Source: Escherichia coli (GTDB taxonomy: Bacteria > Pseudomonadota > Gammaproteobacteria > Enterobacterales > Enterobacteriaceae). Taken from it: 64,000 nt of DNA. This document shows positions 19,450 through 28,062 of this stretch, one piece after another (position 1 is the stretch's first letter; each line of letters begins with the position of its first letter). A program made the position numbers and the translations under genes. Where the stretch lies: NCBI RefSeq assembly GCF_003018255.1, contig NZ_CP027440.1. One strand, written 5' to 3'. Below the pieces are notes generated by a model. That model had not been told where the DNA came from. It saw only the letters and a program-made list of their open reading frames with translations, and searched no databases.

Positions 19450-19544
19450 AATTAATTAATGTCATCAGATCCGAAAATAACGAGAATATTTCAGTCTCTC
19501 ATCCTGTTGCGCTCCTGTCATGTGCATTGCTTCATATAATCACT

Positions 19545-19760
19545 GGCGCAAGGAGCGCGCAGGGGGCGGCCAATCGCCGCCGCCCCCTGCACCCCCGGGC
19601 TCTGGCGAACAAAATCGCCGCTGCGCGGTGCCCTCGGCTTATCCCTTACGGCTACCGGGTCGGGCGCGAGGTAACATCCCTGTAAAACGCGCCCTCAGCC
19701 CACATCCATGTGGGCTGCCCCGGCCTTCAGGGAACGCCTCGGCGATTTTGACGCCACCAA
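19545..19760. repeat. GC-rich intergenic element made of several perfect hairpins (possible boxC/BIME-like repeat or structured RNA)
   Basis: perfect 10-bp stem AGGGGGCGGC/GCCGCCCCCT (about 19561-19588), perfect 10-bp stem CAGCCCACAT/ATGTGGGCTG (about 19696-19717), plus GGCGA..TCGCC and GGCG..CGCC mini-hairpins; lies between yohP and dusC. Confidence 0.4.
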
Positions 19761-19821
19761 ACAACCGTGCGGCCTATTGATAAAGAGCTAACACATTGTC
19801 AAAAAACATCACTATGGTTTC

Positions 19822-20769
19822 TTAGAGTTTCTCGATATCAATTGCCTGAATAGCCCTTGCAATATCAGGGGAATTATTCAACACCCGAACATGCTGAAAT
19901 AATTCCGTTGCTTCATCGTATTCTTTACGCAAATAACTCAACCACTGTTTAATCCGCGCAACGTGATATAACCCGGTATCGCCCTGCTTTTCCAGACGGG
20001 TATATTTTTGCAGCAAAGCAACTACCTCCGGCCACGGCATTCGCGGTTCGTTATATTTTACCACCCGGCTCAGGTTGGGAATATTGAGCGCCCCGCGACC
20101 AATCATCACTGCGTCGCATCCGCTGATCGTCATGCATTGTTGCGCACTCTGCCAGTCCCAGATTTCACCGTTGGCAATCACAGGAATATTCAACCGCTGG
20201 CGAATCTCGCCAATCGCCTGCCAGTCAATATGCTCCGCGCGGTAACCCTGCTCTTTTGTCCGCCCATGTACTACCAGCTCCGTAGCGCCAGCCTGTTGCA
20301 CCGCATCGGCGATTTCAAATTTCTTCTCACCGCTGTCCCAGCCCAGACGCACTTTTACGCTGACGGGCAAATGCGCCGGTACAGCTTCGCGCATCGCTTT
20401 TGCACCCTGATAGATGAGTTCAGGATCTTTGAGTAACGTCGCCCCACCGCCGCTACCGTTAACCGTTTTCGACGGGCAGCCGCAATTGAGATCCACGCCC
20501 CAGGAACCTAACTCGACCGCACGGGCGGCATTCTCTGCCAGCCATTGTGGGAACTGACCTAACAACTGCACGCGCACCAGCGTACCGGCTGGTGTCCGGC
20601 TGGCGTTTTGTAGCTCAGGGCAAATGCGATGAAAGACTTTTACCGGCAGCAGTTGATCCACCACGCGGACAAACTCGGTGATGCACAGATCGTAGTCGTT
20701 AACTTCGGTCAGCAATTCACGCACCAGAGAGTCGAGTACACCCTCCATCGGTGCCAGTAACACACGCAT
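19822..20769 (-). CDS. dusC: tRNA-dihydrouridine synthase C
   Basis: 315-aa ORF, Dus family TIM-barrel motifs (LAPMEGV, conserved Cys in NCGCP). Confidence 0.93.
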
Positions 20770-20781
20770 ATCATCACCCGC

Positions 20782-20809
20782 AAAAAAATGAGGCGCTATG
20801 TTAGCGCCT
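20782..20809 (-). terminator. rho-independent terminator downstream of the aromatic catabolic operon, 12 nt upstream of dusC start
   Basis: minus-strand hairpin AGGCGCUA-aca-UAGCGCCU followed by U7 run. Confidence 0.6.
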
Positions 20810-20830
20810 ATGGTCAGCGGATTAAAGTAC

Positions 20831-22024
20831 TCAGCGTGGTTGCAAACAGTTATCTTCTTTCCAGCCGTACAGCCACTCCATGCCGCGGTAAAACTCTGCC
20901 TGCGATTTCCCTTTCCACAACAGGTTACGTACCTGGCGCTCTACTCCTGCGGCATGATAAACCCGCCCCATTTCACGGGTCGACCAGACGATGCGCGCGG
21001 TGCGCGGAATACGTACCGACTCATACAGCGCAAAGGCTTGTGCCGCATCACCCTCACACTGCGCCAGCGCCTTACCCAGTGTTACCGCGTCTTCCAGCGC
21101 CATACAGGCACCCTGCGCCATATACTGCGCCACCGGATGGGCCGCATCGCCCACCAGCGTAATGCGCTTCGTTCCCCACTTCGCTACCGGTTCACGGTCG
21201 GCGGTTGACCAGCGTCGCCAGGAGGTCGGTTTATCCAGCATCTGGCGCGGACGGGGGTGAATCCCTTCAAAGTAAGAGAGCACTTCCTCTTTACTGCCAT
21301 CCTTCACGCCCCACTCTTCCTGCTGGCGGCTGTGGAATGTCACCACCAGGTTATACTGCTTGCCGCCACGTAAAGGGTAATGCACCAAGTGACAGCACGG
21401 CCCCGCCCACAGTACTGGTGCGTTAATGCGCAAATCTTCCGGCATATCGGCACAATCGATAACCGCACGGTAGACCACATGCCCGGTGACACGCGGCGCA
21501 TCGCCCAATAAGCTCTGGCGCACCACTGACTTCACGCCGTCACAGCCAATCAGAATATCGCCGATCCAACTATTGCCGCGATCGTCGAAAACGGTGACAT
21601 CGTCTTCTGTCTCGCGAATATCCACGACGTTGGTGGAGGTGTGATATTCCACGTCCGGATGCGTCAGTACCGCTTCCCACACCGAGGCATGAATATCAAC
21701 CCGGTGGATCACCGCGTAAGGGCCGCCGAAATGATCGCGAAAGGCCTGACCGGTTTCAATGCGCACCACTTCTTCGGCGTTTACCGCATCCATCATGGTG
21801 ATGTGATCGGTGAATACCGCGCGCTGGCGGGCGATTTCACCGACGCCGAGGCTATCCAACGCCGAAAACGCATTTGGCCCCAACTGGATACCTGCGCCAA
21901 TCTCACCGATCTCATGCGCCTTTTCCAGCAGCACCACTTTGATCCCCTGGCGGGCCAGTGACAACGCAGTTGCCGCACCGCCGATCCCGCCTCCCACAAT
22001 TACTGCGCGTGTCACTTTAGTCAT
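20831..22024 (-). CDS. FAD-dependent aromatic monooxygenase, 3-hydroxybenzoate 6-hydroxylase-like (MhbM-like)
   Basis: 397-aa ORF, N-terminal GxGxxG FAD fold ([17 protein letters not shown]), DG motif (CDGVKSVVR) and GD motif ([15 protein letters not shown]); AGGAG RBS. Confidence 0.88.
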
Positions 22025-22038
22025 TATGGTTCTCCTGG

Positions 22039-22683
22039 TCAGGCTGAAATTTTATCTTGTTGATTTTCTGGCGCTGCGGCAATGAACGCTGGCAGCTGCG
22101 TGCAGGCGTCGTACACCGCTTTGCAGCGCGGATACCCGCTCAGATCGCAGTTCATACGTAGCGCGTTCGCCCACTGTGGAACAAGGCAGCAATCTGCCAG
22201 CGTCGGCGTCTCGCCCACACAAAATTGCCCCGACTGGCTCTGGCGCAGTAGCTGTTCCACCGCGCTTAACCCTTGCTGGATCCAGTGCGCATACCAGCGT
22301 TTTTTATCTTCTTCACTGACGTTCAGCTCTTCGGTCAGGTAGCGCAGCACGCGTAGGTTATTCAATGGATGAATATCGCAGGCGATGGCATAGACAATTT
22401 CCAGCACCTTGTTGCGGGCCGGTTCTTCCTGCGGCATCAGCGGAACTTGCGGGTAGTGACTCTCCAGCCAGTCAATAATCGCCAGCGATTGTCCGAGTGA
22501 TTCGCCCTCGTCGGTCAGCAGCGTCGGCACCAGCCCGACCGGATTCATCCGCCGGTAGGCCAGTTCGTTTTGCTGACCAATGCGGATATTCACCCCTTCG
22601 GTCTGGTAATCGATACCCTTCAGCGCCAGCGCAATGCGCACCCGGTAAGACGCTGAACTATTAAAAAAACTGTACAGCTTCAT
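22039..22683 (-). CDS. glutathione-dependent maleylpyruvate isomerase (zeta-class GST, MhbI-like)
   Basis: 214-aa ORF from ATG 22683 (MKLYSFFNSSASYRVRIALALKG) with GAGG RBS; zeta-GST N-terminal motif; track TTG 22698 rejected. Confidence 0.85.
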   Translation of the reverse strand: MKLYSFFNSSASYRVRIALALKGIDYQTEGVNIRIGQQNELAYRRMNPVGLVPTLLTDEGESLGQSLAIIDWLESHYPQVPLMPQEEPARNKVLEIVYAIACDIHPLNNLRVLRYLTEELNVSEEDKKRWYAHWIQQGLSAVEQLLRQSQSGQFCVGETPTLADCCLVPQWANALRMNCDLSGYPRCKAVYDACTQLPAFIAAAPENQQDKISA

Positions 22684-22690
22684 CATCACC

Positions 22691-23392
22691 TCAGACAATC
22701 TTCACCGCGATAGGCGTTAAGCCCTCGACGTTGCCCGTGATCACATCACCTTTGACTACTGAGCCAACCCCTTCCGGCGTACCGGTAAAGATTAGATCGC
22801 CCGGTTGCAGTTCAAAGAAGCCTGACAGGTAGCTGATGGTTTCATTCACTGACCAGATGAGATGACGAATATCGCTGCGCTGATGATCTTCGCCGTTAAC
22901 CTGTAACCAGATAGGTGCGTTATCAATACCGCCAGTTTCGCTGGCTTTGTGCAGCGGCGCGATGGGGGCCGAGAGATCGAACGCTTTGCCGATTTCCCAC
23001 GGGCGGCCCATCTGGCGCATTTCCATTTGACGGTCACGGCGAGTCATATCAAGACCCGTGGCATAACCCCAGACATATTCATGGGCGTTTTCCAGCGGGA
23101 TATCACTGCCTTTTTTACCAATCGCCACCACCAGTTCAATTTCATAATGGTAGTTATCGGTCTGCGCCGGATACGGCAGCGCCAGCGTTTCGCCAGCGGC
23201 AACCGGAACAATGGCATCCGCCGGTTTGCAGAAGAAGAATGGCGGTTCACGATCCGGATCAAAGCCCATTTCGCGGGCGTGGGCGGCATAGTTACGTCCG
23301 ACGCAGTAAACGCGGCGTACGGGGAATTGTTCATCACTGCCAACAACCGGTACGGTAACGGGCGCTTGTGGTTCGAATACGTATTGAGTCAT
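22691..23392 (-). CDS. fumarylpyruvate hydrolase (FAH family, MhbH-like)
   Basis: 233-aa ORF with fumarylacetoacetate-hydrolase family features; GGGAGAG RBS; operon position. Confidence 0.85.
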
Positions 23393-23407
23393 TTTCTCTC
23401 TCCCAAA

Positions 23408-24436
23408 TTAATAACGTGCTTCGCGGAACAGCCCCAGGGCTTCTTGTACCGGTCTGTCCGAAAAACTAAATAAAACGGTATCTTGCGTGGTCTGGAACGA
23501 CACGCCGTGCCAGGTCGGCACCACGAAGATATCTTTTGCACTAAAGCTGAAGGTTTCATTGCCGATAGTGACCTGCCCGCTACCTTCCACCACATGGTAG
23601 ATGGTGCTGTCAGTGGTACGCGCCACGCGTGAGGCAAACCCTTTCGGCAGCAGTTGCAGAAAAGCGCCCATCGACGGCATCGGATAGCCACCGGTGACCG
23701 GGTTGACGTAGCGCATTTTGTAGCCATCCCACTCATCGGCATCGCCCAGGCGGGTTAAATCGTGTAGCACTTCGCGGCTACGGTCATAACGGTAGTTAAA
23801 GATGGGCGAGGAGTTCCCGGTCTGATGGCGCAACGGCAACATATTGGCAGCGTAACGCGGCAGGTAATCGCCCTCTTTACGCGTTACTGGTTGTTGCTCC
23901 TCCGGGTAATCTTCGGCAAAACCGCAGCCCAGAGTGTTCACTAATGGCAGATCCAGCCCATCGAGCCAGATAACCGGTTCGTCGCCAGGGTTACCGTGAT
24001 CGTGCCAGCGCCACTGCGGGGTCAGGATAAAATCGCCCTCATTCATTGACGTGCGTTCGCCATCAACGGCGGTGAATGCCCCTTTACCTTCAACAATAAA
24101 ACGCAGCGCCGACTGGTTATGGCGATGACTCGGTGCCACTTCGCCCGGCATGATCAGTTGCAAACCGGCATATAAAGTCGCGGTGATGGAAGACTGCCCG
24201 CGCAGCGCCGGGTTTTCCAGCACCAGCACGCGGCGCACGGCTTCTTTCGCGCCAATCAGGCTGCCGCTCTCCAGCAGCAACGGGCGGATCTCCTGATAAT
24301 TCCAGTACGCTGGCGCACAGTTAGCGTTGGGCGTTTTTGGCACCAGATGGTGCAGTGACTCCCACAGCGGGGTCAGGTTTTGCCCGGAAATATGCTGATA
24401 AAATTGCTCGCGGCTATTTTGATTGTTATCAGTCAT
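23408..24436 (-). CDS. gentisate 1,2-dioxygenase (bicupin, MhbD-like)
   Basis: 342-aa ORF, two cupin halves with His-rich metal sites; AGGAG RBS. Confidence 0.88.
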
Positions 24437-24447
24437 TGGGATGCTCC

Positions 24448-25806
24448 TTATTCGTTCACAACACCTGCGTGAGGCAGTGAGTCAGGGACAGAGGTCGACT
24501 GGCGAACCACGGTGATCAGCTGGGTTAACATCACCGCACTGATCGCCGCGGGCACAGCGATAATGAAAAACAGGGTGTCGAAAGAGAAATTCATCGCCAT
24601 CATAACGCCGCCAGACAGCGAGCCAACAATCGCGCCGCAGCGGCCCACGGCGTTTGACCAGCTCACGCCCGTGGCGCGACTTTGTGTTGGATAAAGTGTT
24701 GCGGTCAGCGCATTCAGCCCCACCTGCGATCCGCTGATGCCAATGCCGGTGCCGAAAATCGCCAGCGCCATTAGCCATAATCCGTCCTGGCTTAAGCCAA
24801 TCATCACGATGCATACAGCGCCTATGGCATAGCTCAGCGCCAGTACGCGGAAAGGATTGAACTTATCCATAAGCACGCCCAGCGCCAGCGCGCCCAACGT
24901 ACCGCCAATCTGGAACGCGGCGGTAACCCAGGAGGCATGTTGCAGGTCGATGCCGCGATGGTTGAGCTGCGTTGGCATCCAGCTTGAGAGCAGGTAAATA
25001 ATCAGCAAGCTCATAAAGAACACCACCCACAGCATCAACGTGATGGGTAACTGACGCCCCATAAACAGTTGACGAATGCTGCCTTTTGTAACGGAGGCTG
25101 ATTCAATGAGATAAAAGTGGGTATCGACATAACGCTCGCGGATGATGGCGCTGACGGTTTTCGCAATCACCGCCTGGGGTAGCTGGCGGCGCACCTGCCA
25201 GCGTGGCGATTCCGGCAGAACCACCAGCAGTGCAACAAACAGCATCAGCGGTAATACGCCACCCAACACCAGGATCCCGTGCCAGCCAATCACCGGCACC
25301 AGCTGCGCGCTGACAATCCCGCCAAACGCCGAACCCAGGGTAAAGCCGCAAAACATCAGCGTCACCAGCGCGCCGCGGCGGCGGGCAGGCAGATATTCCG
25401 AGGTCATGGTAATTGTATTTGGCATCGCGCCACCCAGCCCAAGGCCGGTGAGGAAACGCAGGAATACCAGCGTTTGCAGATCCGGTGAGAAAGCCGAGGC
25501 GAGGCTTAACGCGCCAAACAAAAAGACGCACAGCTCAATCACCCGTTTGCGGCCAAAGCGATCGGACAACGGACCACAAAGCAGTGCGCCTGCGGTTAAC
25601 CCCAGCAGACCCGCGCCAAAAAGCGGGGCGAGATCGCCTGCGGTGAGTTGCCAGTGAGTGCGAATATCAGGGGCGATAAAGCCGATAGCCGCGGTGTCAA
25701 AACCATCGAGCATTACCACCAGAAAACAGCAGATGATAACGCGCCACTGCATCTTGCCGACCGGAGCAGCATCGATCAGTGCTTGTAAATCACGTCGTTG
25801 AGTCAT
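24448..25806 (-). CDS. MFS aromatic acid:H+ symporter (3-hydroxybenzoate transporter-like, MhbT-like)
   Basis: 452-aa ORF, 12 predicted TM segments, MFS signature ([11 protein letters not shown]). Confidence 0.88.
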
Positions 25807-25884
25807 AGTAAATGCCTCAGTGCAGGTAAGGTAGATGTTTCATTTGTTTTATGTATGTTGCGATATTGTGATTAAAGAGATGAA

Positions 25885-26841
25885 ATGTACAATGGCATTT
25901 CGGACAGAGAGATAACCTGGAGGTTATGGCAAATGGCAAACTGGGCGCAGAAACTAAAGCTTCATCACCTGCAAATGCTGGTGGCGCTGGGTGAACAGGG
26001 CAATCTGACCCATGTCGCGCGGATGATGAATATCACCCAGCCTGCGCTGTCGAAATGGTTGTCACAACTCGAAGATGAGATCGGCCTCACACTCTTTGAG
26101 CGGCACAGCAAAGGACTTCGTCCTACTGAAGGCGGCAAATTGTTATTGCAACATGCCCAACGGTTAATCAATGACATGGAGCGCTCGCAACATGAACTGG
26201 CCCGTTTTAAACAAGGTGGACTGGTCGGCAGTCTGAAAATTGGCTGTTCTCCCGTCGCCACTGACTGCGTATCCCAGGCGATTTTGCATTTGCTCAAGGA
26301 GATGCCAACTCTACACCTGAATATCGAAGAGAAGGTGATGACCCCATTGCTGCAAGATCTGTTGGCAGGTTCTGTCGATGTGGTGGTTGGGCGAATTGGC
26401 GGTCGCGCGTTGCAGCTGCCGCTGAATTATCGCGTGCTCTACACCGAGCCGGTGTGTTTTGTCGCCCGTCCTGAGCATCCACTGGCGAAATACGCCACCC
26501 TCAGCTGGAATGATCTTGCTAACTGGCGGTGGATAGTCTGGCCGACAGGTACCCCCATCCGCATCAGCATTGATAATGCGCTGGTAGACCACGGCGTGAT
26601 GCTGCCAGAAAACACGATTGAGTCGGCGTCGATGAACGTCAGTACCAACCTGTTACAAAGCAGCGATATGATCTCTATTTTGTCATTACGCCTGGCGCAA
26701 CGTTATGCCAGCCAGGGACAACTGGTGATTCTCAACCTGCCAAAGATAGAACAGAAAGGCAGCGTCGGTGTGTTCTGGCGCAATAACGAAACGCCTTCTT
26801 ATGCTTTAAGTCAGTTTCTGCACTTTTTACAGCAGAATTAG
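25885..26841 (+). CDS. LysR-type transcriptional regulator, divergent from the catabolic operon (MhbR-like); alternative start ATG 25933
   Basis: N-terminal HTH (LHHLQMLVALGEQGNLTHVARMMNITQPALSKWLSQLE) and LysR substrate-binding domain; GGAGG RBS precedes the 25933 ATG. Confidence 0.85.
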   Translation: MYNGISDREITWRLWQMANWAQKLKLHHLQMLVALGEQGNLTHVARMMNITQPALSKWLSQLEDEIGLTLFERHSKGLRPTEGGKLLLQHAQRLINDMERSQHELARFKQGGLVGSLKIGCSPVATDCVSQAILHLLKEMPTLHLNIEEKVMTPLLQDLLAGSVDVVVGRIGGRALQLPLNYRVLYTEPVCFVARPEHPLAKYATLSWNDLANWRWIVWPTGTPIRISIDNALVDHGVMLPENTIESASMNVSTNLLQSSDMISILSLRLAQRYASQGQLVILNLPKIEQKGSVGVFWRNNETPSYALSQFLHFLQQN

Positions 26842-26935
26842 TGTGCTGAACTGGGCGCTCGCCCGAGGTTACGTCCCTAAAATTCAACTATGCTGAGATT
26901 TCTTAATGTGATCGGTAGCACGTTTTACGAATTAA

Positions 26936-28062
<1,127 letters not shown>

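Follow-up and report, generated by a model that had tools for sequence, protein, structure and literature searches.

How is dusC transcribed in a strain where the gene begins 61 bp behind the last gene of a catabolic operon, and where most of those 61 bp look like a terminator? The locus lies in a 64,000-nt stretch of Escherichia coli DNA (contig NZ_CP027440.1), here called the window; its best genome match is E. coli strain DETEC-S792 (99.7%). The original prediction was that a strong hairpin with a T7 run, at 20809-20782 and 12 nt ahead of the dusC ATG, ends the upstream operon and leaves no room for a conventional promoter, and that dusC must use a promoter inside the monooxygenase gene or read-through. 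The sequence behind it was verified: the monooxygenase gene mhbM ends at 20831, dusC starts at 20769 on the same strand, and all coordinates, those of the hairpin and T7 included, hold on the minus strand. We read the same bases differently. With moderate confidence we take the spacer to be an overlapping terminator and promoter, in which dusC keeps an ancient promoter of its own and does not depend on the catabolic operon, from which it is insulated. The features are as follows.

20831-22024, minus strand: mhbM, 3-hydroxybenzoate 6-monooxygenase (397-aa ORF; RefSeq annotation of near-identical genomes).
20826-20821, minus strand: -35-like hexamer TTTAAT, 4 nt past the mhbM stop, with 3/6 consensus matches and a 17-nt spacer to the -10; its position is deduced from the K-12 transcription start.
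20809-20791, minus strand: hairpin AGGCGCTA-ACA-TAGCGCCT, the stem-loop of a putative intrinsic terminator of the mhb operon.
20803-20798, minus strand: predicted -10 hexamer TAACAT, formed by the hairpin loop and the two stem pairs next to it, ending 7 nt ahead of the start mapped in K-12.
20797-20792, minus strand: GC-rich discriminator AGCGCC, most of the right arm of the hairpin.
20791, minus strand: position equivalent to the primary K-12 dusC start, NC_000913.3 2230407, and last base of the right arm (coordinate mapping on identical sequence).
20788-20782, minus strand: T7 run, a putative U-tract in RNA arriving from upstream, and positions +4 to +10 when transcription starts at 20791.
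Between T7 and the dusC ATG, minus strand: the 12-nt sequence GCGGGTGATGAT.
20773-20778, minus strand: Shine-Dalgarno-like GGTGAT, read from the sequence, with 3 nt between its end and the ATG.
19822-20769, minus strand: dusC, tRNA-dihydrouridine(16) synthase, 315 aa (ORF list; RefSeq annotation).
20770-20827, minus strand: backbone block of 58 bp, 100% identical to K-12, containing the entire promoter, the hairpin, the T-run and the Shine-Dalgarno-like sequence.
20828-26896, no strand assigned: mhb/gentisate cluster segment of 6,069 bp, with a LysR regulator and five catabolic genes (blastn of the K-12 intergenic region, alignment and gene order).

The mhbM stop codon is TGA at 20833-20831 on the minus strand, in both the ORF list and the sequence, and RefSeq annotation of near-identical genomes makes mhbM the final gene of an mhbT-gtdA-FAH-maiA-mhbM operon. 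The dusC ATG occupies 20769-20767, leaving a spacer of 61 bp (20770-20830). GGTGAT would serve as the dusC Shine-Dalgarno sequence; G53 and G54 of the alignment described below (A2) are conserved.

We examined the hairpin and T7 as a terminator. The stem has 8 perfect pairs, 5 of them G-C, around the 3-nt loop ACA, and begins 21 nt past the mhbM stop on the same strand. A GC-rich stem of at least 5 bp with a loop of 3-8 nt, at least five U within about 8 nt, and a co-directional unit upstream are all present. The gap between stem and T7 is 2 nt (CA) in E. coli, slightly non-canonical for an intrinsic terminator, and most other species have nine stem pairs against the 8 of the window. In a terminator scan of both strands of 19500-27500 the site ranks in the top two, and such patterns are not rare as such (14 found vs 8.8 +/- 3.1 in shuffles). 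Long T runs are rare, with 3 runs of at least seven T and 5 of at least seven A in the 64-kb window. The 66-nt spacer RNA has a folding energy of -20.4 kcal/mol (z = -2.3). An Rfam scan of the spacer and of the K-12 intergenic region returned no family, and only chance snoRNA matches with E-values of 0.3-1. The K-12 Term-seq tables hold no RNA 3′ end at the hairpin, which says little, because K-12 has no operon upstream and little upstream transcription is expected there. By its features and position, the hairpin with T7 plausibly ends the mhb operon. This part of the original prediction stands as to every sequence feature; the same bases probably also carry the dusC promoter, and the termination itself we infer.

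Another hairpin lies at the far side of the cluster. About 80 nt into yohJ (window 27027-27048, plus strand), ATGCCTGCCTGTATGCAGGCAT is followed by TTTCATT, and K-12 Term-seq places a 3′ end within the ORF at the matching position, 2230706 (Adams et al., 2021). It may be a premature termination site in yohJK.

Comparison with strains lacking the cluster, which the original prediction had proposed as a check, places the hairpin in the backbone. In K-12, dusC and yohJ are divergent neighbors 238 bp apart, with no mhb cluster. By blastn, positions 1-75 and 181-238 of that intergenic region are 100% identical to the two cluster flanks of the window, and between yohJ and dusC the 105-bp middle of K-12 and the 6,069 bp of the window (20828-26896) stand one in place of the other. 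We rejected the idea that the 105-bp segment is a decayed remnant of the cluster, its similarity being limited to chance words of 9-12 nt. Cluster-free genomes match the window exactly through 20827, 4 nt short of the mhbM stop; with the 58 bp ahead of dusC 100% identical in K-12, the hairpin is backbone and not island DNA. The block is found at 90% identity or better in 3402 complete E. coli genomes, at 95% or better in all but one of them, and 1985 of the 3402 fall in the band of at least 99%, which for a full-length 58-nt match means identity. Since the block is common to cluster-free genomes, hairpin and T7 precede the dusC ATG by 12 nt even where no co-directional gene lies upstream.

The monooxygenase gene adjoins dusC in about 504 of 5,426 complete E. 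coli genomes. The 61-bp junction of the window occurs in about 135. In 367 genomes, mostly O157:H7, the mhbM-dusC spacer is 159 bp and the native -35 region is replaced; at this junction TTGTCT lies exactly 17 nt ahead of TAACAT. The O157:H7 spacer (L002:7938-8096) is longer by about 98 bp, which lie between mhbM and the hairpin and contain the GC-rich palindromic stretch ggtcccctcgccccttcgggagagggttagggtgagggt. A 176-nt O157 junction query matched whole at one place per genome, a result that leaves room for further copies of the insert.

An insertion sequence interrupts the spacer in some strains. In DETEC-S792, IS200C (L087:1271-2042) sits exactly between T7 and GCGGGTGATGAT-ATG, equivalent to window 20781/20782. 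IS200 occupies the equivalent site in seven of the 5,426 complete E. coli genomes. The junction variants among them are 95.7-100% identical, which suggests more than one insertion event. The element is there too in the E. albertii type strain NBRC 107761 (L009:1-141), where what looks like a different hairpin, CCTCCGGC-TAT-GCCGGAGG, is the end of IS200. IS200-bearing strains are thus natural variants in which dusC would be separated from its promoter.

The term "island" in the original prediction does not suit the cluster. Its content, LysR, mhbT, gtdA, FAH, maiA and mhbM, is found between yohJ and dusC also in Citrobacter (seven genomes, one of them labelled as a Raoultella MAG), Salmonella diarizonae, the Klebsiella oxytoca group, Raoultella, Pseudocitrobacter and Kluyvera. 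Cluster protein identities across genera are 81-94%, similar to those of the flanking YohJ and DusC, and the mhbM-dusC spacer is 61 bp in Citrobacter and 62 bp in Pseudocitrobacter; the cluster at yohJ-dusC is therefore old. A recent island would be confined to a single lineage and leave a clean insertion site in relatives; here many genera carry the cluster, and K-12 has 105 unrelated bp instead. Judged by gene order and identity, the mhb cluster is an old syntenic module, since lost from most E. coli lineages. We found no published work on mhb transcripts in enterobacteria or on the spacer between dusC and yohJ.

A dusC start has been mapped within the conserved block in K-12. SMRT-Cappable-seq captures 5′-triphosphate ends on full-length reads (Yan et al., 2018, PMC6131387), and the supplementary operon table of that study gives 2230407, reverse strand, as the sole start for both transcript variants of b2140 (dusC). 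With the K-12 dusC ATG at 2230385, this start is at -22, on the T that closes the right arm of the hairpin, 7 nt past TAACAT. Other K-12 5′-end reports disagree (-100 vs -22 vs -10), and both -22 and -10 are within the conserved spacer. The end at 2230395 (-10), inside the spacer, comes from Raghavan (2011) as used by Reg-Seq and EcoCyc. TEX-enriched RACE-seq (Kim et al., 2012, PMC3415461) gives -100, with 21 reads, as the only start in its listing for dusC, and this position falls within the 105-bp K-12 segment that is missing from the window. The -22 end is the only one tied to reads actually containing dusC.

The K-12 start at -22, on identical sequence, implies a sigma-70 promoter, and in the window the same promoter would be used. 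TAACAT has the A at position 2 and the T at position 6 expected of a sigma-70 -10 hexamer, 7 nt ahead of the K-12 start. At 17 nt the TTTAAT hexamer is a 3/6 match, and a CTTT block is kept there at fixed spacing. TTTAAT-17-TAACAT together matches the consensus at just 7 of 12 positions, which is why it was missed by the earlier reader and by our simple promoter scan, in which no site in the spacer had at least 9/12 matches. That a conventional promoter has no room is not supported, given the K-12 start at the base of the hairpin, on 58 bp that are 100% identical, and given that the -10, discriminator and T-run are the region's most conserved bases across Enterobacterales. The statement that dusC must use a promoter inside the monooxygenase gene or read-through is likewise unsupported, a dusC start mapping inside the identical K-12 block. 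A dusC start within the spacer, which the original prediction named as evidence against itself, is supplied by proxy by this 5′-triphosphate start on identical sequence, at window-equivalent 20791.

We also considered a dusC promoter predicted by Shimada (2014), TCAACA-18-CATCAT, and rejected it; it lies beside the yohJ start and is supported by no mapped 5′ end. In the window this sequence remains next to the yohJ start (26897-26971), 6 kb from dusC and pointing into the 3′ end of the LysR gene.

Conservation was examined with a DusC-based scan of one genome per species, which gave 80 loci. Anchoring 61 of the upstream regions and the window on the hexamer produced alignment A2 (n = 62), which spans Escherichia to Serratia and Brenneria. 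Hexamer positions 1, 2, 5 and 6 (T, A, A, T) are invariant in the 62 sequences, the unpaired loop A included. Also invariant or nearly so are GCGC, TC, the T-run and the T6 of the -35-like block at its fixed distance. Columns 36-39 (GCGC) are 92-100% conserved, even where the left arm is lost, and columns 5-8 (CTTT) are conserved at fixed distance, with T6 invariant in all 62. The variable parts are hexamer positions 3-4 and the left arm (55-91% conserved, lowest at column 25 with 55%). The -10, GCGCGTC and T6 elements reach Serratia, where the hairpin cannot form.

Pairing is found in 82% of the A2 cells; the left arm is either identical or decayed, and the right arm never follows it. This asymmetry between the arms is what a promoter would predict, and not what would be expected of a pure RNA stem or of a symmetric operator. 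The covariation score of the hairpin in the 62-sequence alignment is 0.064, not above slid controls, with double changes in just 4 cells, and the comparative evidence therefore does not prove the hairpin structure. The T-run persists with 5-8 T in 32 sequences with a degenerate hairpin, and therefore has a role beyond termination.

Hairpin strength was compared with the upstream gene. A stem of 8-9 bp is found in 19 of the 19 sequences in which mhbM ends within about 200 bp upstream (the window and 18 fetched species), and also in three Buttiauxella species with a different co-directional gene. Contiguous stem pairs number five in cluster-free Citrobacter and Kluyvera, two to four in Enterobacter and Leclercia, and one in Serratia. 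A strong stem is kept in cluster-free Escherichia, Franconibacter and K. pneumoniae, while Enterobacter and Leclercia have a weak one despite a co-directional gene upstream. With all loci pooled, hairpin strength showed no overall difference by presence of any co-directional upstream gene (Mann-Whitney p = 0.30); the contrast holds only for the mhbM-adjacent subset and within Citrobacter, and phylogeny confounds both. These patterns suggest, with that phylogenetic confounding, that the left arm is maintained where upstream transcription needs terminating.

Several relatives have a different arrangement ahead of dusC. In S. enterica subsp. arizonae the cluster is reduced to the LysR regulator, and the region upstream of dusC lacks the conserved motif. 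Kluyvera genomosp. 1 keeps the cluster with an mhbM-dusC gap of about 1.5 kb and a degenerate left arm, and a divergent ORF of about 460 aa begins there about 107 bp upstream of dusC. A co-directional gene with an arginine-rich tail lies directly upstream of dusC in Erwinia, Buttiauxella, Yersinia and Rahnella; judged by the tail alone, it looks like an RhlE-type DEAD-box helicase. Erwinia has its own G6/C6 hairpin upstream of dusC in place of the enterobacterial motif.

Our preferred reading, an overlapping terminator and promoter, can be set out along the spacer. From 5′ to 3′ come the mhbM stop, 4 nt, TTTAAT, a 17-nt spacer with the left arm as its 3′ half, TAACAT, the right arm with the discriminator, the start site, CA, T7, GGTGAT and the ATG. 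A polymerase coming from the 3-hydroxybenzoate-induced mhb operon would transcribe both arms and U7, and most such polymerases should stop. A polymerase at the embedded sigma-70 promoter would start after the stem, and its RNA could not form the hairpin. That transcript would continue into dusC with a 22-nt U-rich leader, from the start mapped in K-12 and expected at the same base in the window. With a conserved promoter of this kind, dusC would not need read-through from the aromatic-degradation operon. Leaky termination or promoter occlusion is a possible way of coupling dusC to aromatic induction; neither is required. The two elements are ordinary ones, and it is their overlap that appears uncommon and strongly conserved.

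The first alternative keeps the spacer as a terminator only, with dusC made from a promoter inside mhbM or by read-through and its level following aromatic induction. The lack of a site with at least 9/12 matches in the spacer fits this, as does a 9/12 promoter-like site inside mhbM (20983-20954), and the -100 start listed by Kim et al. (2012), outside the conserved 58 bp, would mark a promoter used in K-12 and missing from the window. Promoter-like sites in the 8-kb region are, however, at the chance level (7 vs 5.3 +/- 2.3 expected), and any RNA begun within mhbM would need to get past the hairpin and U7. The start of full-length dusC RNA in K-12 maps inside the identical 58 bp, and the -10, discriminator and T-run are most conserved across genera whether or not mhbM is upstream. 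We regard this alternative as improbable.

Less probable again is a reading in which the perfect palindrome of 19 bp mainly serves a dimeric repressor as its operator, overlapping the dusC -10, and the likeness to a terminator is secondary. A perfect palindrome across a -10 is a typical operator arrangement, and the Reg-Seq entry for dusC has a "repressor-like" site with no assigned factor at -35 to -20 (merged call -43 to -16) relative to an assumed start of 2230395, an interval that begins just past the -35-like hexamer, covers the spacer and left arm and reaches into the -10. Mutations that raise expression would nevertheless be expected even with no repressor in a 7/12 promoter with a GC-rich spacer, and up-mutations of a weak promoter, a lost hairpin or a genuine repressor could each account for the Reg-Seq site. 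The half-sites are unequally conserved (right 92-100%, left 55-91%), a poor fit to a symmetric operator, and the T7 after the palindrome is left unexplained.

Least probable of all is that hairpin and U7 are an attenuator in a dusC leader, with the true start upstream (K-12 -100), regulated read-through, and the mhb operon having replaced that promoter in the window: the 5′-triphosphate-enriched start of the Kim et al. (2012) listing (21 reads) and the fold of the 88-nt K-12 RNA from -100 to U7 (L003:1899-1986, minus strand; MFE -34.3 kcal/mol, z = -5.9) favor it, but neither the window nor the other genera have the -100 region, while the hairpin/promoter block is conserved, full-length dusC reads start at -22 and not -100, the K-12 Term-seq tables lack a 3′ end at this hairpin, neither an alternative antiterminator pairing nor an Rfam family was found, and upstream of the hairpin, where a start of its own would have to lie, the window has just the 21-nt gap and mhbM coding sequence. 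In the 88-nt K-12 RNA a 5′ stem-loop of 14 bp is joined by a linker to the terminator hairpin, a small-RNA- or leader-like arrangement.

Returning to the overlapping terminator and promoter, we compared it with known systems. It resembles E. coli intrinsic terminators in its GC-rich 8-9-bp stem, short loop and U7 soon after the last stop of an inducible operon. It differs from them in the 2-nt CA between stem and U-tract in the E. coli dusC spacer, and in that the -10, discriminator, start site and initial transcribed bases of the following gene are embedded in its stem, loop and U-tract. Stable-RNA promoters such as rrnB P1 are of sigma-70 type with a GC-rich discriminator. The dusC promoter is like these in that its -10 is directly followed by (A)GCGCC, with GCGC nearly invariant over 62 species, and in that its product acts on tRNA; it is unlike them in that both hexamers are weak (7/12). 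T7 class II (hairpin-less) terminators show context-dependent promoter activity for E. coli RNA polymerase, an overlap that was called unexpected (bioRxiv 10.64898/2026.02.12.705533). There too one short DNA is terminator or promoter according to how polymerase approaches it; those contexts are engineered, whereas at dusC a natural class I hairpin and a chromosomal promoter are conserved across an order.

The T-run may have a second role. codBA and upp-uraA are UTP-sensitive promoters with reiterative transcription (Qi and Turnbough, 1995; Tu and Turnbough, 1997, as cited in PMC12709180 and PMC8812562), a process that requires at least 3 identical nucleotides in a row at the start (PMC8812562; PMC12709180). 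The MG1655 layouts of upp, TATAAT-ccgtc-GATTTTTTTTG, and codBA, TAGAAT-gcggcg-GATTTTTTG, match that of dusC, TAACAT-agcgcc-TCATTTTTTTG, in which the productive start is just upstream of A-T7, as in codBA and upp. The T-tract of dusC is of the same type (TCA-T7-G vs GA-T8-G in upp and GA-T6-G in codBA). The likeness has limits: dusC has pyrimidines (T, C) rather than G ahead of the A, in most other genera the A is missing and the order is C-T7, and DusC is not a pyrimidine salvage enzyme. We give a small chance to an extended proposal in which T7 would be both the U-tract of mhb and a UTP sensor in the style of codBA/upp, acting with the rRNA-like GCGCC discriminator to tune dusC to UTP and ppGpp, while polymerases released at the terminator would land on the promoter and couple the two units by recycling or occlusion, with no read-through. 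Sensitivity of dusC to UTP or ppGpp is speculation by analogy, and a U-rich translational enhancer would explain the conservation of the T-run equally well. If the proposal were true, synthesis of a uridine-reducing tRNA enzyme would be tuned to the UTP pool and ppGpp.

For genome reading, a pitfall is evident here: a hairpin and U-tract near a start codon do not mean that a promoter is absent, and in this case the loop would be the -10. A housekeeping tRNA-modification gene could in this way sit 61 bp behind an inducible operon and yet stay independent. The module has kept its form between Escherichia and Klebsiella, and the promoter half extends as far as Serratia. As for the mhb "island" carried by O157:H7 and other E. 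coli strains, it is an old syntenic cluster lost by most E. coli. The dusC spacer offers a clean natural example for studying how one set of bases can serve both a terminator and a promoter, how short intergenic regions keep neighboring units transcriptionally apart, and perhaps how tRNA modification might respond to UTP or ppGpp.
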